Part shown: piece after piece, positions 5,160-15,113 of the stretch
How the letters are laid out: the number at the start of each line of letters is the position of its first letter
How positions within the stretch are numbered: position 1 is the first letter of the stretch
Assembly: GCA_963676565.1 (NCBI GenBank)
Contig: OY781089.1
Coordinates: 2,624,001 to 2,688,000, forward strand
Direction of reading: 5' to 3'
Origin: Halarcobacter sp.
Lineage (GTDB): Bacteria > Campylobacterota > Campylobacteria > Campylobacterales > Arcobacteraceae
DNA: 64,000 nt
Made by a program: the position numbers and the translations under genes
The notes under the pieces: model-generated
Database searches by the model: none
What the model was told of the DNA's origin: nothing
The model's input: only the letters and a program-made list of their open reading frames with translations

Positions 5160-6419
5160 ATGGATACTAATAAAGTAAATGAGATTGTAAAAGAGACTTT
5201 AATAAGTCTTCATAAAAAGAATATTCTAGCAACACCAAATGAATACCATAAAGAGTTTTGCAAAATTTCTAATGTGTATGATTTTACTGTTGAAGAGTGT
5301 GAACAATTCAAAAAACTTGTTAAAAAATTAAGTAGAAATGAACAACTGGAAATAAAATCAAAAAATATTACAACTATTGAAGATATGATTCCAATATTAC
5401 TTAATAGAATTTCTAAAGAAAATATTAACAACCTTGCACTTCTTTTTAATAACTCTTTAAAACCCTCAATTAGTATTGATATAGACAAAGACTTAGAAAA
5501 ATTTACTATAAAAATTGGTGATTCACCAGCATTGTTATTTGAAGATGATATTCAAAAAGAGATGCAAGACTTTATCACAAAAAGATTTGAAGCTGATAAA
5601 AATGTTGTAAAACAAAAAACATCAGAGATTGCAAAACTATTAACCTTGATGGGACAATATTTTAGTGATGCTATTCATAGTAGTGATAAAGGCTCAAATG
5701 AAGTTTCAAATATCAAATCTAAAATTCAATCTATAGATATGAAAGATGGTATGCAAAGCCTTAGTGACTTGCAAAGTCAATTAATTGATGCCGCTAAATC
5801 TATTGAAAATGAGATGTCAAATGTAGGAGAAAAGTTAAATTCTGGTAAATCAAAAGTTGAAACTTTAGAACAAAAAGTGAAAAAATTAGAAGTAGAATTA
5901 GAAAAAACAAGAAAACAAAGTTTGATAGACCACTTAACAGGTGTTTTAAGTAGAGGAGCATACGAAAACGCCGTAAAAAAAATAGAAAATACTTTTATGA
6001 GAAATAATACTCAATATGCAATTGTTTTCTTTGATCTAGACCACTTTAAAAAAGTTAATGACACATACGGTCATGATGCTGGAGATATTATTTTATCTAC
6101 CTTTGCAAAAGTTTTGAGTAAAAACACTAGAGAACTTGATATTGTTGGAAGATATGGTGGGGAAGAGTTTGTTGCAATTATCCATTTTAATCTAAAAAGA
6201 GAACTTTTAAAATATCTAAAAAGAATCAAAGCAATTATAAAAGATAATGACTTTATATATAAGAATCAAAAGATACATTTAACTTTTTCTGCTGGTGTTT
6301 CAATTAGAAATAATCATAATAGCTATGATAGCACTATTCAAAAAGCAGATATGCTTTTATATGAAGCAAAAGAAACAGGTAGAGATAAGATTATACTGGA
6401 GGATGGTACTATAATTTAA
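5160..6419 (+). CDS. Diguanylate cyclase (GGDEF)
   Basis: DHLTG, DLDHFKKVNDTYGH, RELD I-site, RYGGEEF; helical/coiled-coil N-terminus. Confidence 0.92.
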   Translation: MDTNKVNEIVKETLISLHKKNILATPNEYHKEFCKISNVYDFTVEECEQFKKLVKKLSRNEQLEIKSKNITTIEDMIPILLNRISKENINNLALLFNNSLKPSISIDIDKDLEKFTIKIGDSPALLFEDDIQKEMQDFITKRFEADKNVVKQKTSEIAKLLTLMGQYFSDAIHSSDKGSNEVSNIKSKIQSIDMKDGMQSLSDLQSQLIDAAKSIENEMSNVGEKLNSGKSKVETLEQKVKKLEVELEKTRKQSLIDHLTGVLSRGAYENAVKKIENTFMRNNTQYAIVFFDLDHFKKVNDTYGHDAGDIILSTFAKVLSKNTRELDIVGRYGGEEFVAIIHFNLKRELLKYLKRIKAIIKDNDFIYKNQKIHLTFSAGVSIRNNHNSYDSTIQKADMLLYEAKETGRDKIILEDGTII

Positions 6420-6428
6420 GGAGTCCCT

Positions 6429-6857
6429 ATGAAAGCCTTATTAATGTTTTTGGTTGTTGGTTTTTTTTCTAACTTATTGGCTATTGAAAGTTCAGGTTTT
6501 ATAAAAAAACTGACAGGTGAGGCGATTATAAAAAGAGATAACAAAACTATTATAGTAAAAACTGGAGTTAAAATATACCCAAAAGATATAATCATTACAA
6601 AAAACAACAGCTCTGTTGGGATTATATTTAAAGATAATACTCTAATCTCCCTTGGAAAAAATACTGAATTTATTATTGAAGAATATAAATTTAATCCAGA
6701 AGAAAAACACGAAGCTTTTATATCAAGAATTACAAAAGGAACACTATCCTGTTTAACAGGATTAATGCCAAAATTAAATCCTGATGCTATGAAAATAAAA
6801 GCAAAAACAGCTTCTATAGGTATAAGAGGTACACATTTTTTAATTAGCGTAGACTAA
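6429..6857 (+). CDS. Small secreted FecR-like domain protein
   Basis: Signal peptide; FKDNTLISLG and KTASIGIRGT motifs. Confidence 0.8.
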   Translation: MKALLMFLVVGFFSNLLAIESSGFIKKLTGEAIIKRDNKTIIVKTGVKIYPKDIIITKNNSSVGIIFKDNTLISLGKNTEFIIEEYKFNPEEKHEAFISRITKGTLSCLTGLMPKLNPDAMKIKAKTASIGIRGTHFLISVD

Positions 6858-6867
6858 AAGGGTATTT

Positions 6868-7443
6868 ATGAAAATTTTTATTACTATTATTTTACCATTA
6901 TTCTTTTTTACAGCCTGTTCAAAAGTAAACGTTGTCCTACTTCCAGAAGATGGAGATAAAATTGGGAAAATAGAGATCCAAAATGAAGACAAAAAATTTG
7001 TTATAGATAAACCATTTGAGCAAGTAAATGCTATTGATGGAGACTCATCAATTCTAACCAAAGAAGAGGTTCAAGAAAAGTTTAAAGACTCAATTGCAGC
7101 ACTACCTAAAAAACCAAAAAGTTATCTAATCTATTTTGAATGGGATTCAACAAAAGTTGTTCCAAAATCAAAAAAAGAAATTAAGAAAATCATCGAAAAT
7201 ATAAAAAAAGAAAACACAAACTATATACATATTATTGGTCATACTGATAGAGCAGGAGATAACCAATACAATAAAAAATTATCACTAAAAAGAGCAAACT
7301 ATATTAAAAAAATACTTATTAAAAACAAAATACCAAAAGAGATAATTGAAATAGACTATTATGGAGAATCTGCACCTTTAGTCAAAACACGAGATGACGT
7401 GCCAAGAAAAATAAATAGAAGAGTAGAAGTAACTGTAAAATAA
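6868..7443 (+). CDS. OmpA-family (peptidoglycan-binding) lipoprotein
   Basis: Lipobox FTAC; GHTD...YNKKLSLKRA...YGE...NRRVEV. Confidence 0.88.
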   Translation: MKIFITIILPLFFFTACSKVNVVLLPEDGDKIGKIEIQNEDKKFVIDKPFEQVNAIDGDSSILTKEEVQEKFKDSIAALPKKPKSYLIYFEWDSTKVVPKSKKEIKKIIENIKKENTNYIHIIGHTDRAGDNQYNKKLSLKRANYIKKILIKNKIPKEIIEIDYYGESAPLVKTRDDVPRKINRRVEVTVK

Positions 7444-7452
7444 TATTAAAGA

Positions 7453-7484
7453 CTAAATAAGTTTCTCTTGTCCAATTCTATATA
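7453..7484 (-). other. Displaced original 3' end of the TIGR02757 gene (YRIGQEKLI*), element junction
   Basis: Minus strand reads ta tat aga att gga caa gag aaa ctt att tag, matching the C-terminus of the 13628-14410 protein. Confidence 0.88.
7472..7484. repeat. att core copy (left)
   Basis: ccaattctatata, identical to 13647-13659. Confidence 0.85.
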
Positions 7485-7555
7485 GGGGAAGAAACACTTT
7501 AAATAAGTACTTGTAGAAGTTATATAATTAAAAGTGTCCTATTATGTGTACATAT

Positions 7556-8215
7556 TTACTTAAAGTTCCTAATTACACGATATGTAATACTACTATTATT
7601 TGCATTTATAACTTCAATCAAAGCACCTTTATAACCAATAGTTTTTGACTCTGATAAATCATATTCTACATCATTATTAAAAGCTGGTCTTGCTCTATTA
7701 TTAGAAAACTCTCTATAACTTATATTAATTTTATTACCTACCTTTCCACTATATATTAATGTTTGTTGAAAAGATTTTCCTCTTTCTGAAACTTTTTCTA
7801 CTAATTCCCAATCACCATCATAACAAGCAGTACCACCAAATACTGTTACAACACATAATTGCTTTTTGTCAGTTTTCTGCAAGGCTAAAGATTCAAAAGG
7901 GTCAAATATAGCTCCACGAACAACTCCTGTAGGGTTGAAAAATAAATATTTATCATCATAACCAATTGGTGGATAATATTTAGGTGGAATATCATATGCA
8001 ACTCCATCAATTAATTGGTTTACTCTTAAGCCTTTTTCTTGATAAACAACTCCTTTTTCCAACAAATGGTCACCTATAAATGCAGTAACTTCATTATTAA
8101 GTTTAGGATAGTTTACATTTTTTACAACAGATGCACCTCCATTATACTTTGTACTTGCACAACCACTAAATAAAATAACAAATCCTATTGACATTAATAT
8201 CCATATTCTTTTCAT
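7556..8215 (-). CDS. Hypothetical lipoprotein (element cargo)
   Basis: Lipobox FSGC; conserved-looking C-terminus FQQTLIYSGKVGNKINISYREF...ARPAF..DVEYDL. Confidence 0.8.
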   Translation of the reverse strand: MKRIWILMSIGFVILFSGCASTKYNGGASVVKNVNYPKLNNEVTAFIGDHLLEKGVVYQEKGLRVNQLIDGVAYDIPPKYYPPIGYDDKYLFFNPTGVVRGAIFDPFESLALQKTDKKQLCVVTVFGGTACYDGDWELVEKVSERGKSFQQTLIYSGKVGNKINISYREFSNNRARPAFNNDVEYDLSESKTIGYKGALIEVINANNSSITYRVIRNFK

Positions 8216-8261
8216 AGTAATCCCCTTATAATATAAAAGTTTATCAAAAAAAAATGAAATG

Positions 8262-8516
8262 TTAATTAATATACTTATAAAAGTTATTATTCTTTATTAT
8301 TGAATTTAGCTCTTTTTGTTTTCTCAATAAAATATCTAACTCTTTCATTAAACCATGCAAAACTAAATCATTCTTAAGTGCATTCATTTTTGACTTTTCT
8401 TTACCCTCTTTTGTTTTAGCTCCAGTAGATTTTAACCACGGTTTATGTTTATGTATTTCTTCTCTTGCTTTCTGTTTTGCTTCATCATTCCAAGCTAACT
8501 TATGATATTTACTCAT
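8262..8516 (-). CDS. Small basic protein with KPW-x-x-STG motif (HGGxSTG-related)
   Basis: W...KPWLKSTGAKTKEGKEKSKMNALK; its start overlaps the stop of the upstream 272-aa gene. Confidence 0.65.
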   Translation of the reverse strand: MSKYHKLAWNDEAKQKAREEIHKHKPWLKSTGAKTKEGKEKSKMNALKNDLVLHGLMKELDILLRKQKELNSIIKNNNFYKYIN

Positions 8517-9327
8517 TAAGTGCCTTTTCTTTTAAAGTTGTGACTTCTACCTCATCATTTGTTTTATCCTCTATAAGCTTAGTTTCATTTTGTAGTTCGT
8601 TTTCTTTTTCTATTTTTTTTGGTGAATTTTGATGAAGATGATTATGTTGTGAAGCTTCTTTTATAAATGTTGTTCTTTTAGGATTAACTATCTCATTAAT
8701 TGCCATAATGCTCTTTCTTGTCTCTTGCATAACTTTTATCTGCATATTAGATAACCTTTCAAAATTAACTATTTGTTTTCCTGCTTCACCAGTTATATTA
8801 TTAGTAATGGTGCTATTAAAAACTTGAAGTTGCAACACATTAGTTGTAAGTATAGTAATTAAATGAGAAGTATCACCCTCTTTTACTTTCTTTACCATTT
8901 CCAAAATATCATCACCTAAAATTTGTTGTGAAATTGGTATATCTTTGTTTGGATTTTGATTTAATATATTAATCATTCCACTATATAAAGGATTACTCAT
9001 TTGTTTTGTTGCGTGTTTCTCTGCATCATTCTTTTTTTGTTTAGCTTCTTGAATATCCTCTTTATACTGTTCTTTCCATTGGATACATTGACTTAAACTA
9101 ATTTCATAGCTTTCTATGATTTCCTTATCACTAATACCACTTGAAGATAAATAAATATAGTTTTTTATCAAACCTCTTTCATAAGCTCTTAAAATTTGTT
9201 CATCTTTTTTTAATCTTTTTGAGATACTTAATTCTTCAAATAGTTCATCTAAGCTATACTGGTCTTGTGCATAATCTTCTATATCTTGTAACATTTCATC
9301 TGTGATTTTATATCTTCCCATTATCAT
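8509..9327 (-). CDS. Hypothetical protein with N-terminal HTH-like repeats (possibly terminase-small-subunit-like)
   Basis: GISDKEIIESYEISLSQCIQWKEQY HTH-like segment; C-terminal QETRKSIMAINEIVNPKRTTFIKEA motif. Confidence 0.55.
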   Translation of the reverse strand: MIMGRYKITDEMLQDIEDYAQDQYSLDELFEELSISKRLKKDEQILRAYERGLIKNYIYLSSSGISDKEIIESYEISLSQCIQWKEQYKEDIQEAKQKKNDAEKHATKQMSNPLYSGMINILNQNPNKDIPISQQILGDDILEMVKKVKEGDTSHLITILTTNVLQLQVFNSTITNNITGEAGKQIVNFERLSNMQIKVMQETRKSIMAINEIVNPKRTTFIKEASQHNHLHQNSPKKIEKENELQNETKLIEDKTNDEVEVTTLKEKALNE

Positions 9328-9338
9328 TTCCTTTTTTA

Positions 9339-9452
9339 AAAAGTGTAAAATTAGCTATTGCATATATTAAACCAATACTTTTTATTTTTTTCATACTCTA
9401 TACCCTCCTATATATCGTCGTTCTGTTAAAAGTGTAAAGTTAGCTATTACAT
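9339..9452. repeat. Two 25-bp direct repeats (23/25 identical), candidate replication origin
   Basis: aaaagtgtaaaattagctattgcat (9339-9363) and aaaagtgtaaagttagctattacat (9428-9452), flanking the stop of the Rep-like gene. Confidence 0.65.
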
Positions 9453-10290
9453 TATGGTACTTATACTCATAAGCTAAAAGATGGCTATACAAATATACAT
9501 ATGAAACAAAAAAAAGAGGAAGAATAGAAAAAATGCTTTCTTTTATTAGCTTTGTTACTGTTGGTCTTGATAAATTTAGTTCCTCTGCTATTGCCTTTAT
9601 ATTTGGTTTTCCATTTAGCTTTATATAACTACCTTCATTTATCAACTTTAATATCATTCTTGTATTTTGTTGTTTCTGCTTCTTCATTTGCTTCCCTCTC
9701 ATTTCTCCACCTTTCTTATATGCCTTTTTTAACTCAATAGGTGTTAGTTGTTGTTTTAAATTGTTTTTGTTCTTTAAAATAAAGCTATATACTCTATTTG
9801 ACATATTTAATAACTCTTTATAGCTATATGGTTTATTTAATTTGTCATTTATCTTATGTCCTGCATATATAATCATTTCAAGTGATAATATTTTGTGGTA
9901 GTACAAATTTTTTGCATAGATACATAGTCTTTGATACATATCTTTTTTATTTTGCGCAAATAGTATTATTGGATATTTTGTATTTATTGATTTATAGTGA
10001 TTTGATAAGTCATCTAAAGAGTATTTTTTGTATTCAACCTCATCAATATCTGTACTTTCTACAAATTCAAAATTTACTTTTATATGATGTTTCATTGAGT
10101 GCTTTATATTTGCTAACCATTTAAGCTGTTTAGGTGAACTTATAGAGTGTTTTAGTTCATAAGTAATACAAACATAGCCTTGATGATTAAACTTCGTTAG
10201 AGTCTTTATATGAGTTGGTATTAATAAAGAGTATGCAACCTTTTCATAATCATTAAAAAGAAATTGTAACGATATTTTATTTAGTTGCAT
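9391..10290 (-). CDS. Putative replication initiator (ColE2-type replicase-like, C-terminal HTH)
   Basis: KKGG..RG basic patch followed by HTH NIKAIAEELNLSRPTVTKLI; position within the element. Confidence 0.55.
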   Translation of the reverse strand: MQLNKISLQFLFNDYEKVAYSLLIPTHIKTLTKFNHQGYVCITYELKHSISSPKQLKWLANIKHSMKHHIKVNFEFVESTDIDEVEYKKYSLDDLSNHYKSINTKYPIILFAQNKKDMYQRLCIYAKNLYYHKILSLEMIIYAGHKINDKLNKPYSYKELLNMSNRVYSFILKNKNNLKQQLTPIELKKAYKKGGEMRGKQMKKQKQQNTRMILKLINEGSYIKLNGKPNIKAIAEELNLSRPTVTKLIKESIFSILPLFFVSYVYLYSHLLAYEYKYHNVIANFTLLTERRYIGGYRV

Positions 10291-10304
10291 ACTACTATTT
10301 AAAC

Positions 10305-10589
10305 CTATTTTCTAACTAACTTTTTCTTAGGTTTATTAACTTCTCTAAAATCCAAGTGAGGATTTTCTTCAAGTAGTTTATTTTTCATTCTACTAACTGC
10401 AACACTATTACTTATAGTCTCAAAAGTTAAATCTTCAACTTTAGTTTTTGGATTAAACTCCATTAAATACTGTTTTATAATTGCAGGATTTCCAATATCT
10501 CCACCAAATAAAAAAGGGTCATCTTCTATCTTTGAAAATGTCCACTTTTTAATATCATTGTCAATTGCATTTACATAATTCTTTTTCAT
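10305..10589 (-). CDS. Hypothetical protein (element)
   Basis: 94-aa ORF with an aagga RBS, co-oriented with the other element genes. Confidence 0.7.
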   Translation of the reverse strand: MKKNYVNAIDNDIKKWTFSKIEDDPFLFGGDIGNPAIIKQYLMEFNPKTKVEDLTFETISNSVAVSRMKNKLLEENPHLDFREVNKPKKKLVRK

Positions 10590-10772
10590 AATCTTCCTTT
10601 TTTAGGCATTACTTTATTGACCCATTATTTCAGAGCAACCTTTTTTTACTTCACTATTTAAAACTTTGTTGAATAAAACAAATTATGATAGAATTCTATT
10701 GCGATATAGCCTTATCAATTTGATTATTCATTTTGATAGGGTTTTAACTACTATTCATTTTATTACCTCCTT

Positions 10773-10985
10773 TTATAGATTTACTTTTACTGTTCTATCT
10801 TCTAAGTATCTGATTAATTCAGTTCTTGAAACATGAAGTTTGTTTCCAATTTTTACTGCTTCAAGTTTTCCATTGTAGATTAGTTTTTTTGCTGTTGGGG
10901 TTTTTATAATATGGTAGTCTTGTAGTTGTGCTAAATTAAATAACACACCTTTTGGGATTATGTTGTTATAGTCTGTTATTGCCAT
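10773..10985 (-). CDS. Excisionase/AlpA-like helix-turn-helix DNA-binding protein
   Basis: 70 aa; KKLIYNGKLEAVKIGNKLHVSRTELIRYLE resembles the HTH_17/Xis pattern. Confidence 0.8.
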   Translation of the reverse strand: MAITDYNNIIPKGVLFNLAQLQDYHIIKTPTAKKLIYNGKLEAVKIGNKLHVSRTELIRYLEDRTVKVNL

Positions 10986-11115
10986 TATAATTACTCCTAT
11001 ATGGTTATAAGTGTAAGTATAATATATATTTAGAAGTTTGGTATATTACATTTTTATAAAAATATTGATCTTTTGTATTGTTATATATTATGTATTAAGA
11101 AGTAAAAATATATAC

Positions 11116-12225
11116 CTAAAAAAAACTCTGAAGTTTTGATTGGAAGTCTTTAAATATTTTAGGTTTTAGTTCTAAAGGAGTTAGTGTTTCAAAATATTTA
11201 TTCATTGTAGCTTTAGAGACATCAAAATCCGTAGCTGATTTAATATATGAAGTTATTTTACTTGTTTCAATATTAAGTACAATTGATAGAGGTTTAAAAA
11301 TCATAAGTTTATGACAAGTTTTTGGAATAGAACAAATTTCTATTTTTTTTGATAATAATTTTATATGTCTTTCATTACCTTCATATCTTTTTAATACTTC
11401 TAAATCTTTTTTATACTCATTAATCTCTGTTCTACTTATATTACTTAGAAAAAGATAATGAGTGTAGCCATCAATCAAAGCATTTGTAAATTCAAAATAA
11501 ATATCCTTATTCTCACCTTCTGGCTTACATATTTTACATTTATATAAAAAACTCATATAATGGTTATTGCTTTTAAGTTGATATTGTCTCTTTTTGCTAT
11601 TGTCAAAAATCATATGTGTTCTATATTTCTCTGCTTCTAAGAAACTTACAACATCGTCTGAATTACTAATTTTACTTACTTCTCTTATTATAAGTTCATA
11701 ACTATTTTCAAGAATTCTTTGATTATCTTTTTGACTATTAACTAATATATTAGAATTAACCTCATGATATATTTCATGCCATAAGTTTATCTCAGCAAAT
11801 GAATGACTATCTAAATTAACAAAAAGTGTACTATAGTCTGTTAATGTATATTTATTCAATGGTATCTCTTTAATATTATCCTCATAGTCATCATATTTAT
11901 CAAAATCTATACTATCACTAAGTACATACTCCTCTTTTAATCTATCAAAAAAATCATCATTTATACAAAATTCAATTCCTGTTGTATCTAAAATATCAAC
12001 ACTATAATCGGAAGAACGACCATACCTTATAAATTCAATTACAGGCTCTATCATTTCAAGTAAATGTTCTTTATACTCATAATTAGTATGATTTACTATA
12101 GTTTGTACAAAATGTTTTTCAAATTTTTTTATTCGAATATCATCGAATATATAGCTTGATACTTCTTCATCAGTGTCAAAATCAATTTCAGTACCATAAA
12201 AAAAATCATCTATATAAAAAGTCAT
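11116..12225 (-). CDS. Hypothetical protein, acidic N-terminal half (element)
   Basis: 369-aa ORF directly downstream of the integrase; no recognised motif. Confidence 0.75.
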   Translation of the reverse strand: MTFYIDDFFYGTEIDFDTDEEVSSYIFDDIRIKKFEKHFVQTIVNHTNYEYKEHLLEMIEPVIEFIRYGRSSDYSVDILDTTGIEFCINDDFFDRLKEEYVLSDSIDFDKYDDYEDNIKEIPLNKYTLTDYSTLFVNLDSHSFAEINLWHEIYHEVNSNILVNSQKDNQRILENSYELIIREVSKISNSDDVVSFLEAEKYRTHMIFDNSKKRQYQLKSNNHYMSFLYKCKICKPEGENKDIYFEFTNALIDGYTHYLFLSNISRTEINEYKKDLEVLKRYEGNERHIKLLSKKIEICSIPKTCHKLMIFKPLSIVLNIETSKITSYIKSATDFDVSKATMNKYFETLTPLELKPKIFKDFQSKLQSFF

Positions 12226-12234
12226 TCAATATCC

Positions 12235-13476
12235 TTATCTCATTAAACCATTAAAGGCATTAATTGCCCTACTTGCTTGTTCTTTACTTGTTTTAGCGTA
12301 CCTTTGTTCTGTTATAGTGATACTACTATGTCCTAACATTCTACTTATATCTTGTATAGGCACTCCATTTTGCACTAATGTAGTTCCTAACATATGTCTT
12401 ATATCATGTAATCTTAATTTAGGTAAACCTAAAGCCTTTAATATATTTTGAAAATGTACTCTTGGTGTTTCTCTTGTATATGTAAATATCTTGGCTTCAC
12501 TTTTAGAATATAAATCAATATTTCTCAATCTTGATTGACTCTTTAAAGCTTCTAAAATATATTCATCAATTTCAAAATCAAGCTCTTTTTTTCCCTTTGT
12601 ATTTGTAGAGACTATTTTAAAAGAATTTGACTCAAAATTTAAATCACAAAATCTTAAATTTAGTATTTCATTTATTCTTCTTCCAGTCAAAGAAAAAGCA
12701 AATATATTTTTGATTTCTTCATATTGATAAAATACTTCATCACCTATATCAATTCGTGAATATTCTCTTAAAACTTTTATTATCTTCTTTGTATCATCTA
12801 AAGATAAAGTATATTCAACCTTGTTATCAACTTCGGGTAATTCTAAATCATCAAAATCAAGCGATATTTCTTTTTTATATGTTTTAAAAAAAGCCCTTAA
12901 TGTCCTTGCATATAAGGCTACTGTTGCAGGTGCTTTTTTAGAATCTAATAATCTATGAATAATCTTTTGAATATCTTTTATTGTAATAGCTGAAAAATTT
13001 TTATCATGTAATTCTCTTGAGTGAGTTCTTAGTGTAGTTTCATAGTTTTGTAAAGTTGATTTTCTTGCAGATACTTCTTTGTCTTTTAAAAAGTCATCAA
13101 CTTTATCTAAAAATGTTTCTTTTTCTTTTATATCTATTTTATCTATTTTTTTCTTTTTTCGTAGACTTTCACCTGCTTTTAGTTTTTCTTTTATATCAAG
13201 TCTAATAGAGTCTACAATATCAAGTAAGTCTTTGAAGGATTTAACAAAAAGTAGTTCTTTATTTGTCTTTGTTTCATGATAGTTAAAAATGAGATTCTTT
13301 TTACCTCTTTTTCCTTCTATCTTTACTCTAAGTTGTACTTTGATTTCTTTCTTCTTTTTGAGTAATTCATTACCTTGTTTAACTGTTGTTATATCATCTT
13401 TAAAAGTATCATCAAACTCTAAAAACAATCCTACACAATTTCTATTTGTAATATTAATTAATCTAAATTCACTCAT
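12235..13476 (-). CDS. int: Tyrosine recombinase / phage integrase
   Basis: Catalytic set TGRRINEI (R), TKGK (K), LRLHDIRH (HxxR), LGHSS, QRYA (Y). Confidence 0.95.
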   Translation of the reverse strand: MSEFRLINITNRNCVGLFLEFDDTFKDDITTVKQGNELLKKKKEIKVQLRVKIEGKRGKKNLIFNYHETKTNKELLFVKSFKDLLDIVDSIRLDIKEKLKAGESLRKKKKIDKIDIKEKETFLDKVDDFLKDKEVSARKSTLQNYETTLRTHSRELHDKNFSAITIKDIQKIIHRLLDSKKAPATVALYARTLRAFFKTYKKEISLDFDDLELPEVDNKVEYTLSLDDTKKIIKVLREYSRIDIGDEVFYQYEEIKNIFAFSLTGRRINEILNLRFCDLNFESNSFKIVSTNTKGKKELDFEIDEYILEALKSQSRLRNIDLYSKSEAKIFTYTRETPRVHFQNILKALGLPKLRLHDIRHMLGTTLVQNGVPIQDISRMLGHSSITITEQRYAKTSKEQASRAINAFNGLMR

Positions 13477-13627
13477 TCTAATATATCCTTAGATAAAAAA
13501 TGTCCTTTAAAGTACCCTTTTTAGTGTCCTAATATTTGATTTATCTATGAATAATCATATCTATTTGTATATATAGTTTAGATTAAAACCACTAATTAAA
13601 GGTACATATAGAAGTATTAGTATATAT

Positions 13628-14410
13628 TTAGATTATCTTTTCCTGACCAATTCTATATAAAGCAAAATCATATTTTATAGGATCTTCTTTATCAAAATGT
13701 TTTAATTTTTCAGTTATATCAATTGCACTTTTTAAATCATAAGTTTTTCTATCTAAAAGCCCTATTCTTTTTGAAACATTAAAAGTATGAGTATCGAGGG
13801 GCAAGATTAAATCTTTTTTATCAATTCCATGCCAAAGACCTAAATCTAGATTATCTTCTCTAATCATCCATCTAAGATACATAAACCATCTTTTATAAGG
13901 TGCATTTCCTATGTGCTTAATCTTTCCATCTTTATCCCTTTTAAATGGGCTTGAAACTAAAAATTTAAATCCTTGTGATTCATAATTTGCTAGCTGATGT
14001 ATTTTTAATATAAGAGCATCTAAAGCTTCTAGTATTGAGTTTGTATCTATATAAGTTTTTTTAAAAATCTCATTTAAACTGTATTCTTGTTTCATATTTC
14101 TAAAGGTTTGAAATATTTTTATAACATCCTCACTATTTTGAAATCTATAATAATGATTAGACAACTCTTTTTTTATAGTATCTTCATTTTTATCAAGTAA
14201 ATCAAAATCTAATGAATCTAAAAACTTAACTATTAAACTAGCTTTTCCATATCCAAACAAAGCACAAAGTAAAATTGCATATTCATCTTTATATCTACTT
14301 GCAACTAACAAAGGATCGGGTTTTTCATAGCTTAGTTCACAGGAAGAGTCTCTACATAAAACCTCTTGGTCTAAAAGTTGTTTTAATTCTAAATCTTTTT
14401 TAGTCATCAT
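13628..14410 (-). CDS. TIGR02757/DUF2400 family protein (integration target, restored by element-encoded tail)
   Basis: KPDP...ALFGYG...KRWFMYLRWMIR..D.GLW...PLDTH...DPIKYDFALY. Confidence 0.9.
   Translation of the reverse strand: MMTKKDLELKQLLDQEVLCRDSSCELSYEKPDPLLVASRYKDEYAILLCALFGYGKASLIVKFLDSLDFDLLDKNEDTIKKELSNHYYRFQNSEDVIKIFQTFRNMKQEYSLNEIFKKTYIDTNSILEALDALILKIHQLANYESQGFKFLVSSPFKRDKDGKIKHIGNAPYKRWFMYLRWMIREDNLDLGLWHGIDKKDLILPLDTHTFNVSKRIGLLDRKTYDLKSAIDITEKLKHFDKEDPIKYDFALYRIGQEKII
13647..13659. repeat. att core copy (right, integrase-proximal)
   Basis: ccaattctatata within the last codons of the TIGR02757 gene. Confidence 0.85.
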
Positions 14411-15113
14411 TTCTCATATCAATTAACTCTTCTAAATCCTCTTCAATTTTTGCATATGCATTATTGGCATCTTCATAATAAATTTTGTTAAAGTTTTCTT
14501 CATATATCAAGTGGTTTGCTTCAAGATTATTCAATATAGAATAATTTGCAAATGAAGACAAATAATTAACATCAATCACATTTCCACTTGTACCAATAAC
14601 CACCAAAATATCACATTGTTCTAAAATATTATACATAAGTTCATACTTAGGAGCAGCTTCTCCAAAAAATACAATATTTGGCCTCATTTTTGAACCACAA
14701 ATTTTACATTGGCTATTTGTTTCATCTTGCAGTTTATAATCAATATTTACTATATTCTCACATTTGGTACATTTAATCTCTTTTAAAAAACCATGTAAAT
14801 GTATCACATCTTTACAATTTGCTTTTTCAAGTAAGTCATCAACATTTTGAGTAATAACTTCTATTTTTTCGGGATATTTATCTTTTAATCTTGCAATCAT
14901 TTTGTGAGCATTATTAGGTAGTTTTTCTTCAATATCTTTTCTTCTTAAATTATAAAAGTTAATTGTATTTTCATAATTCCAATCTAAGCACCCTGCACTA
15001 CATATCTCATTTATATCATGATTTTCCCACAATCCATCACTATCTCTAAAAGTTGAAATACCACTACTAGCACTAAGTCCTGCACCACTAAAAATTATGA
15101 TTTTATCTCTCAT
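14400..15113 (-). CDS. cobB: NAD-dependent protein deacylase, Sir2/CobB family
   Basis: GAGLSASSGISTFRD, ITQNVDDL, HLHG, Zn-binding Cys pairs, RPNIVFFGE, GTSG. Confidence 0.9.
   Translation of the reverse strand: MRDKIIIFSGAGLSASSGISTFRDSDGLWENHDINEICSAGCLDWNYENTINFYNLRRKDIEEKLPNNAHKMIARLKDKYPEKIEVITQNVDDLLEKANCKDVIHLHGFLKEIKCTKCENIVNIDYKLQDETNSQCKICGSKMRPNIVFFGEAAPKYELMYNILEQCDILVVIGTSGNVIDVNYLSSFANYSILNNLEANHLIYEENFNKIYYEDANNAYAKIEEDLEELIDMRNDD

Follow-up and report, generated by a model that had tools for sequence, protein, structure and literature searches.

In Gammaproteobacteria and Bacillota, phage satellites and comparable 'hitcher' elements have been well documented. Gram-negative phage-inducible chromosomal islands (PICIs) and P4-like satellites are small, lie at transfer RNA (tRNA) genes or at the 3' ends of other genes, follow the order integrase (int), alpA, replication and accessory genes, and carry defence cargo. 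In the available description of the Vibrionaceae PICMIs (phage-inducible chromosomal minimalist islands), PICMI115 has a length of 6,110 bp, and the islands contain int, iolg, alpA, a primase gene and two unknown genes; no packaging genes are reported there, and the concatemers are packaged by virulent helper phages (PMC10803314). The integrase-only islands transduced by jumbo phages are described as lying downstream of transfer-messenger RNA (tmRNA), with direct repeats, a tyrosine integrase and defence cargo (PMC12595487). Here we analyse a 6,175-bp island within a 64,000-nucleotide stretch of the genome of Halarcobacter sp., a member of the Arcobacteraceae (contig OY781089.1, positions 2,624,001 to 2,688,000); this whole stretch is referred to below as the 64-kb window. 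The segment is certainly a site-specific integrative element, it is very probably mobile and probably still active. Its closest description is a Campylobacterota-specific variant of a minimalist integrative satellite-like island, which is defined by the gene pair p272-p84 and set apart from PICMIs by comparison with their description.

The island is like the Gram-negative PICIs and P4-like satellites in gene order, small size and a 3'-end target, and is about half their usual size. To the extent that PICMIs are described, it shares with them the length of ~6 kb and a unidirectional set of genes, comprising int, an ORF (open reading frame) after int, an AlpA-type helix-turn-helix (HTH) protein, a replication gene and unknown genes (PMC10803314). 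In the same account, PICMIs likewise have no capsid-remodelling or terS genes, integrate at a gene 3' end with a direct repeat and include defence-carrying variants. As in the jumbo-phage-transduced islands, no genes with recognised autonomous-transfer roles are present; unlike the island, these are described without a replication module or an equivalent of p272-p84, the comparison being made by description (PMC12595487). A full-text literature search, with subscription journals outside its coverage, gave no description of phage satellites in Campylobacterota, in line with the original prediction, made from the sequence of the window, that the island is of a type not recognised as described in this phylum. 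Searches combining Arcobacter with genomic island, integrase and satellite returned no paper, and the papers combining SatelliteFinder and Campylobacter are, by title and abstract, not on such elements.

Integration at the 3' end of the TIGR02757 gene

The island is bounded by two exact copies of the 13-mer CCAATTCTATATA, the attL core at 7472-7484 and the attR core at 13647-13659, which are on the same strand and are the only two copies in the 64-kb window. The unit between the cores is 6,175 bp long and holds eight intact, co-oriented minus-strand ORFs, encoding proteins of 413, 369, 70, 94, 299, 272, 84 and 219 aa. Identical 13-bp cores around eight co-oriented genes, a 6175-bp unit and the order of the genes had all been proposed originally, and they were confirmed by the repeat positions, by the repeat spacing of 6175 nt and by the ORF map together with the family assignments, respectively. 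At lower stringency the core repeat (repeat family D6) is longer, with 31 nt at 77% identity and the same 6175-nt spacing. When up to one mismatch was allowed, at least two matches to CCAATTCTATATA were obtained in 4 of 100 shuffles, so the 13-mer alone is weak evidence and it is the context that makes the case convincing.

Besides the longer repeat, this context comprises the two flanking genes. On the left, an OmpA-family gene of the chromosomal flank (6868..7443, plus strand; PF00691, 2.3e-20) ends 9 nt from the stop codon (7453-7455) of a displaced native 3' end of the TIGR02757 gene, which was left at attL (7453..7471, minus strand) and translates as …LYRIGQEKLI*. On the right, the attR core lies within the coding sequence of the TIGR02757/DUF2400 target gene (13628..14410, minus strand; TIGR02757 8.8e-71, model positions 2-229 of 229), which is full length with a hybrid 3' end. 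As it stands, the gene ends …DPIKYDFALYRIGQEKII (…LYRIGQEKII), with its last codons taken from island DNA, …QEKII* replacing the native …QEKLV* or …QEKLI*. The left arm of the element (7485..7555) contains one copy of the exact 9-mer TAGGACACT (7533-7541), and the right arm (13477..13646) comprises the int promoter region, the second copy (13523-13531) and, at 13628-13646, the final codons and stop that the island supplies to the TIGR02757 gene. No further copy of TAGGACACT occurs in the 64-kb window; the two lie on the minus strand, shortly inside either end of the island, and they are candidate arm-type integrase sites. Base composition showed no clear step at the island borders, an Rfam scan of 6000-15000 gave no match, and promoter and terminator scans were uninformative in this AT-rich DNA (40 sites versus 44.7 expected).

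The right flank was searched in 41 genomes, and both flanks were then blasted on the 19 relatives' loci returned. In a sister species (genome G014, locus L003), the left flank matches at 95% identity as far as window position 7470, ending at L003:1484, and the right flank resumes at L003:1501; a single copy of the core sits between them (alignment A1), and the gene there ends …FALYRIGQEKLV (…LYRIGQEKLV). This junction is the predicted attB, a precise empty site, and the genes of the island are not present at this locus in all relatives. It also matches the arrangement foreseen in the original prediction, in which the ompA-like and TIGR02757 genes would meet at a native-looking junction once the element is removed. 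Integrase-like DNA was found beside the same gene end in three of the 19 loci (G003, G015 and G005), where the proteins are integrases 50-54% identical to that of the island, accompanied by Xis-type genes, and where the further content is quite different. The other 15 loci have different neighbours within the 1.5 kb examined; in G010, the closest relative (90% identity), these are unrelated chromosomal genes. From the empty site in G014 and the related integrases at the same end in three relatives, we conclude that the island was inserted and that the 3' end of the TIGR02757 gene has served repeatedly for attachment in this genus. An integrase beside one end, direct att repeats and a relative whose site is empty are the features by which generic tyrosine-recombinase elements are recognised, and the island has all three.

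The three other occupants of the TIGR02757 site differ among themselves: G003 (L025) has a split integrase followed by an int-ORF-xis-like layout, G015 (L026) has the phage-like early genes DUF932, Gp157, Rad52 and YagK/YfjJ, and G005 (L027) has a defence-type island with a C5 methylase, AAA_5, HATPase and patatin. A second integrase element of the source genome lies outside the window (G000:C1, ~2377-2388 kb; L207), and encodes a 430-aa integrase, two Xis-like HTH proteins and a 1003-aa ORF similar to the DUF5906-type primase-helicases of siblings of the island described below. L207 and the G015 island have a DUF932/Gp157/Rad52-like module in common.

The p272-p84 pair and its element family

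The proteins of the island were compared with Pfam, PHROGs, NCBIfam and PADLOC, and neither p272 nor p84 belongs to a family in any of these. The signature core protein p272 (8509..9327, minus strand) consists of an N-terminal HTH, a helical hairpin and a nearly invariant C-terminal motif (…RKSIMAINEI.NPKRTTFIKEA.QHNHLHQNS…). It has 100 relatives with 37-88% identity (alignment A2), named only as hypothetical proteins, from Sulfuricurvum, Sulfurovum, Campylobacterales and 'Epsilonproteobacteria'. The N-terminal HTH similarity is weak (NF001066, 6e-4; PDB 1s7o, 0.0074), and in the AlphaFold 2 (AF2) model, which has a predicted local distance difference test score (pLDDT) of 74, the middle of the protein is a long helical hairpin. 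The small basic core protein p84 (8262..8516, minus strand) carries the motif KPWLKSTGAKTxEGKxxSKMNALK, which forms an invariant core in its 51 relatives (alignment A5). Its gene always directly follows that of p272, with an overlap of 4-8 nt in the family and 8 nt in the island. A prediction of the complex of the two proteins had a score of 0.02, bearing neither way. p272 was also considered as a small terminase subunit (TerS) and set aside for want of a specific fold match: Foldseek against the PDB and BFVD gave nothing at E <=0.001, with two 'small terminase' rows at E 0.5-1.0, and VIA-align returned only helical-hairpin look-alikes at Z <=10.1, within the noise for helical proteins.

A scan of one genome per species with the p272 profile returned 10 loci in 6 records, five of them (L106 and L111-L114) from Sulfurovum sp. 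CS9 (NZ_CP180410.1), and JGI/ENA metagenomes yielded 20 further loci. Among 401 sampled Campylobacterota genomes p272 is present in two, the source genome included; the element is rare and patchy in genomes and diverse in metagenomes. The p272-p84 pair stands behind an integrase and an HTH_17/AlpA gene in nine of the 10 genome loci and in several metagenome loci, and the order in the family is int, often an unrelated ORF of 150-450 aa, HTH_17/AlpA, one or two small ORFs, a replication slot, p272, p84 and cargo. The locus L115 (L115:9947-10558) holds a decayed member, in which a 113-aa p272 fragment and p84 adjoin an OmpA-like flank without an integrase.

The elements differ in most of the remaining positions. 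Their integrases are of at least two unrelated types, one with a P4-like Arm-DNA-bind_3 domain. Of 11 elements compared, five have an ORF that overlaps the stop of int, by 4 or 8 nt, as iolg is described to do in PICMIs; in three the ORF is 2, 9 or 253 nt away, and in three it is missing. The replication slot is occupied by a p299-like protein (the island, L106, L116 and L120), by an unrelated protein of 223-243 aa (L108 and L111), or by a three-gene set ending in a DUF5906/VapE primase-helicase (L107, L109 and L113; 1.4e-18, with PHROG 'DNA primase' matches). The C23-type replication-slot proteins were tried as kin of p299 and rejected at an hhalign probability of 0.5%. The cargo consists of a 1055-aa Type ISP/IIG restriction-modification enzyme in L120, Mrr and PD-(D/E)XK nucleases in L106, a KTSC-domain protein in L108, Peptidase_S74 'tail-fibre-like' proteins in L111 and L114, and a lipoprotein in the island and in a variant copy of L120. 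In comparison with L116, a metagenome contig with the genes p94-p299-p272-p84-lipoprotein at 72-91% protein identity to the island, the identity falls to 52-67% from the 3' half of p84 onward, and the L120 variant diverges at the same point; the joint between backbone and cargo is therefore at the end of p84. Units bounded by direct repeats were delimited at tRNA-Leu (L108, 5419 bp, and L111, 7258 bp), tRNA-Arg (L109, 6402 bp) and tRNA-Met (L107, 7212 bp). The island thus belongs to a family of modular elements of 5.4-9.0 kb with a conserved p272-p84 pair and an interchangeable replication type.

As a possible link to virions, the tail-fibre-like cargo of the siblings was rejected: it has PHROG matches of 5e-10 to 6.6e-16 and 71 IMG/VR loci, none with p272 or p84. 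Some of the Peptidase_S74 paralogues in Sulfurovum sp. CS9 are interleaved with p84-like mini-genes.

The 18,949-bp metagenome contig L120 consists of 2.1 head-to-tail units of 8976 bp, in the order p272', p84, restriction-modification gene, junction, int, 391-aa ORF, HTH_17, p94-like, p299-like, p272 and p84. The first two copies agree at every position over 9173 bp, and the third diverges inside p84 into other cargo. The 459-bp junction between cargo and int contains a DUF2400-like gene end (…AQLYIMGKRRR*) ~160 nt upstream of int, compared with a spacing of ~151 nt in the island, and five copies of AAAGTACACC, found by eye on both sides of this gene-end mimic, are candidate arm-type integrase sites. 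The junction resembles an attP, or else the internal joint of a tandem array; by implication, reads connected the cargo end with the int end, so that a circular or concatemeric state of the element is suggested. No terminal overlaps were detected in 23 contigs checked for circularity. In seven of the 101 p272 clusters, the longest contig measures 6.0-6.5 kb (6087, 6108, 6174, 6281, 6426, 6479 and 6494 bp); such unit-length contigs hint that the element often assembles as a contig of its own, with L110 among them being integrated.

Recombination, replication and cargo genes of the island

The 413-aa tyrosine integrase (12235..13476, minus strand; PF00589 5e-22, phrog_1 4.3e-45) has the catalytic R, HxxR, H and Y residues, recognised by eye, and is 48% identical to the integrase of L120. 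The variable ORF right after int, p369 (11116..12225, minus strand), occupies the position of iolg in PICMIs, and begins 9 nt from the int stop. It has 17 relatives among 1.84 billion representatives, all matching its C-terminal half only; p369 and 14 relatives gave no Pfam family, and no similarity was found to the ORF at the same position of L120. The Xis/AlpA-type HTH protein of 70 aa (10773..10985, minus strand) matches PF12728 HTH_17 at 6.3e-7, with 30 bits against a cut-off of 27, and the excisionase domain TIGR01764 at 3.2e-5, under the family cut-off. Its homologues, 40-69% identical, adjoin related integrases.

The small ORF p94 (10305..10589, minus strand) travels with replication genes of the p299 type. 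It has relatives in L116 (88%), L117 (41%) and L120 (39%), and no Pfam, PHROG or NCBIfam family.

The putative replication initiator p299 (9391..10290, minus strand) has 15 relatives and a weak sequence match to HTH_24 (2.7e-4). Its AF2 model, built from 17 sequences with a pLDDT of 82, comprises three parts: a domain resembling archaeo-eukaryotic primases (AEP), a helical domain like that of ColE2 Rep, and a winged HTH. In the VIA comparison of this predicted model, residues 1-100 resemble AEP/PrimPol (6zp9_B; Z 7.3, root-mean-square deviation (rmsd) 3.1, 92 residues) and, at Z 5.2-5.4, also match Prim-PolC, CAPP, LigD polymerase and RepB'. Similarity to the primase DNA-binding domain of ColE2-P9 Rep was seen for residues 113-180 (3vw4_B; Z 7.3, rmsd 2.7, 67 residues), and residues 205-256 form the winged HTH. 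An independent protein-atlas search of p299 returned clusters of Replicase (PF03090), PriCT_1 and HTH, while no Pfam match to PF03090 or PriCT_1 was obtained in the 17 family members. The domain order resembles that of the ColE2-type Rep/PF03090 proteins, with an AEP-like fold, a helical domain like that of ColE2-P9 Rep and a C-terminal HTH; p299 differs from them in the lack of a Pfam match, in an acidic motif that is not conserved and in the middling Z of 7.3. The label 'Rep-like' given to p299 in the original prediction rests on the modest fold matches to PrimPol and ColE2 Rep domains, without the conserved catalytic residues of a primase. The model is most consistent with p299 being a probable origin-binding replication initiator rather than an established primase.

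The last ~45 residues of p299 are poorly conserved, and their codons overlap two 35-nt direct repeats (9329-9363 and 9418-9452; repeat family D3), which are 83% identical and 89 nt apart. The region 9329..9452 spans the 3' tail of p299 and the spacer between p299 and p272, and is 90-95% identical to L116. Because this conservation includes the non-coding spacer, the region is a candidate origin or operator.

The last gene of the island encodes a 219-aa lipoprotein (7556..8215, minus strand), with a full-length match to phrog_1353 (1.5e-62) and a lipobox recognised by eye. The phrog_1353 lipoprotein occurs in 73 IMG/VR loci and in 33 phage records, which come from Acinetobacter and Moraxella phages and, in Salmonella and Klebsiella, from P2-like phages. 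In Fels-2 its gene is located in a variable slot between the replication gene A/tum and the portal gene Q, and in Acinetobacter phage Ab1656-2 beside a DUF4258/HTH pair. The lipoprotein of the island is an accessory, moron-type gene of prophage type, possibly with a role in surface exclusion. The 3' part of this gene (7595-7777, 183 nt) has ~75% DNA identity to Acinetobacter and Moraxella phages, and the same interval equally matches Acinetobacter/Vibrio plasmids or chromosomes filed as plasmids, an unusually high conservation across phyla.

For p94, p299, p272 and the lipoprotein, which are 83-91% identical to their counterparts in L116, the lengths are equal in both copies, and the dN/dS values are 0.15, 0.24, 0.15 and 0.08, respectively. 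Equal lengths and low dN/dS indicate that these are maintained genes and not debris. This speaks against the ORFs being decayed fragments of something larger, an outcome that the original prediction had named as refuting it: all eight are open, and four have dN/dS values of 0.08-0.24. Sampled sequence words of the island were all recovered in one sequencing run, with fractions of 0.39 in one other run and 0.07 in another.

Transfer lifestyle of the island

Judged from its architecture alone, the island may be a phage satellite that is packaged by an infecting helper phage. We hold this reading tentatively, with a confidence that falls a little short of even, and rank it first because the layout closely resembles that of the Vibrio PICMIs. 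The integrase recombined the 13-bp attP core with the 3' end of TIGR02757, where the replacement codons keep the target gene whole. In this scenario, excision to a 6,175-bp circle would be directed by the HTH protein of AlpA/Xis type, perhaps with the help of the variable ORF after int, and the circle would be amplified by p299 acting on the nearby repeat-bearing region. Because there are no virion or conjugation genes, the element would have to hitch-hike, and its route would be packaging in the particles of an infecting, probably non-resident, helper phage, as for the Vibrio PICMI satellites. The p272-p84 pair would be the candidate helper-linking module, acting in packaging redirection or late regulation, and the last slot would hold exchangeable cargo that pays the host, namely restriction and nuclease genes in the siblings and a prophage-type lipoprotein here.

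No family match to capsid, portal, tail or terminase/TerS genes was obtained in the eight island proteins (Pfam, PHROG and NCBIfam), nor to a relaxase, coupling protein or type IV secretion system (T4SS; Pfam and NCBIfam), which bears out the original prediction that capsid, tail, relaxase and T4SS genes are missing. The hijack genes of PICIs, capsid-forming PICIs (cf-PICIs), P4-like satellites and PICI-like elements (PLEs), that is terS, ppi, rpp, cpm, sid, psu, delta-type genes and the PHROG category 'head and packaging', had no match in the eight proteins either. PADLOC found no defence family in them except for a weak mad1 match (0.0059). A filamentous or tailless prophage was considered and rejected, with no Zot-like assembly ATPase, coat or capsid match in Pfam or PHROG and, by eye, neither a Walker A motif in p369 nor any hydrophobic ORF of coat type among the eight.

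The likeness to PICMIs, which had been part of the original prediction, stands for the layout and the size of ~6 kb, and fails for two of the four criteria in the PICMI model as described. An integrase and an AlpA protein (PF05930 or PF12728) are colocalised, here as PF00589 and PF12728. A DUF3987 (PF13148) or DUF5906 (PF19263) primase is absent from the eight proteins and from 17 p299 relatives and is found, as DUF5906, in the siblings L107, L109 and L113; and the integration target is not the end of fis, as in the PICMI description, but TIGR02757/DUF2400, or tRNA genes in siblings. Within the limits of that description, the island also differs from PICMIs in the ORF after int, which does not overlap it, in its phylum, and in the AEP-like/HTH protein that replaces the primase, whereas the tandem L120 recalls the PICMI concatemers. 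The available account of PICMIs states no counterpart of the p272-p84 pair, the comparison having been made with the description and not with PICMI sequences.

A number of results weigh against a satellite lifestyle. Neither a helper phage nor a packaging gene or pac/cos site came to light, and the source genome had no match to the TerL_ATPase, Terminase_6N or HK97 capsid families; with no tailed-prophage hallmarks detected in the genome, any helper would therefore be an incoming phage. p272 has no relative in 50,697 phage records and none confirmed in IMG/VR, and therefore is not recognisable as a TerS derived from a phage; in fold comparisons it matches a generic helical hairpin. No invariant DxD acidic motif was present among the 17 aligned p299 sequences, and the fold Z scores of p299, all below 8, are middling. 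Instead of a free concatemer, L120 may represent either a chromosomal tandem array or a path taken in assembly round a cycle of the graph: identical 9-kb repeats are beyond the resolution of short reads, and for this reason the contig shows that the assembly graph is cyclic and need not reflect a physical concatemer. The tail-fibre-like cargo is weak evidence of a virion, because this family has 18 matches in five chromosomal clusters of the Sulfurovum sp. CS9 genome, in which there was no TerL match by PF03237 or PF03354. Finally, the exact empty junction was found in one of the 19 relatives' loci, that of G014 alone.

An integrative self-replicating episome without a dedicated partner would fit the same data nearly as well. 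Such an element would excise, replicate in the manner of a small plasmid and reintegrate, and it would spread by natural transformation, vesicles or occasional generalised transduction, and p272-p84 would serve its maintenance or regulation, for example in partition or copy control. Natural competence is found in many Campylobacterota, and the island has its own integrase, an Xis-type gene and a putative initiator, with no packaging or transfer gene matched in any library; the tandem or circular form L120 likewise occurs without a virion context. The record searches cut both ways: none of the phage, plasmid or IMG/VR records searched contained p272, and its absence from 72,556 plasmid records speaks against an episome. 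The element is rare (2 of 401 genomes) yet extends across several families at 37-88% identity, which argues for efficient horizontal transfer, and satellites typically have exchangeable cargo for defence and the order int-ORF-alpA-rep. We regard the episome as rather unlikely.

Quite unlikely is an integrative mobilizable element, in which a conjugative plasmid or integrative conjugative element (ICE) in the same cell would supply the relaxase and T4SS that recognise a cryptic oriT after excision. A small integrase island without transfer genes would suit this explanation, and it may be speculated that p272 (HTH and coiled coil) and the basic p84 are relaxosome accessory proteins. Conjugative mobilisation is weakened by the lack of a relaxase, coupling protein or T4SS match in the island and of any VirB4 or VirD4 family match in the whole genome, and neither p272 nor p299 has a relative in the plasmid collection. 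That the island is an immobile, decayed remnant of a larger prophage or plasmid is very improbable, for despite its small size, six of eight proteins without a named function and the existence of decayed kin (the L115 p272 fragment without int and the split integrase of G003), all of its ORFs are intact and under purifying selection, the compact 5.4-9 kb layout with clean att repeats recurs in distant hosts, L120 has an attP-like junction, and no larger relative with structural genes was found in the phage, plasmid and IMG/VR searches.

The Campylobacterota include food-borne and environmental Arcobacteraceae as well as sulfur-oxidisers of vents and sediments. It is possible, and somewhat doubtful, that the elements of 5.4-9 kb in Arcobacteraceae, Sulfurovum, Sulfuricurvum and uncultured relatives constitute the first phage-satellite family of Campylobacterota, in which p272-p84 would capture the packaging machinery of a probably virulent helper and the last slot would take up anti-phage cargo by exchange. 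The island has clean boundaries, is apparently active and has a predicted excision product that can be tested, and it provides a natural cargo slot with restriction and nuclease genes in the family. The p272-p84 pair defines this family in more than 100 sequence clusters without a Pfam or PHROG model. If helper dependence is true, the idea of the minimalist satellite would extend beyond Vibrio and point to new phages of these bacteria. Without helper dependence, the family would still offer a compact toolkit of integrase, att sites and replication genes for a phylum that is short of genetic tools.

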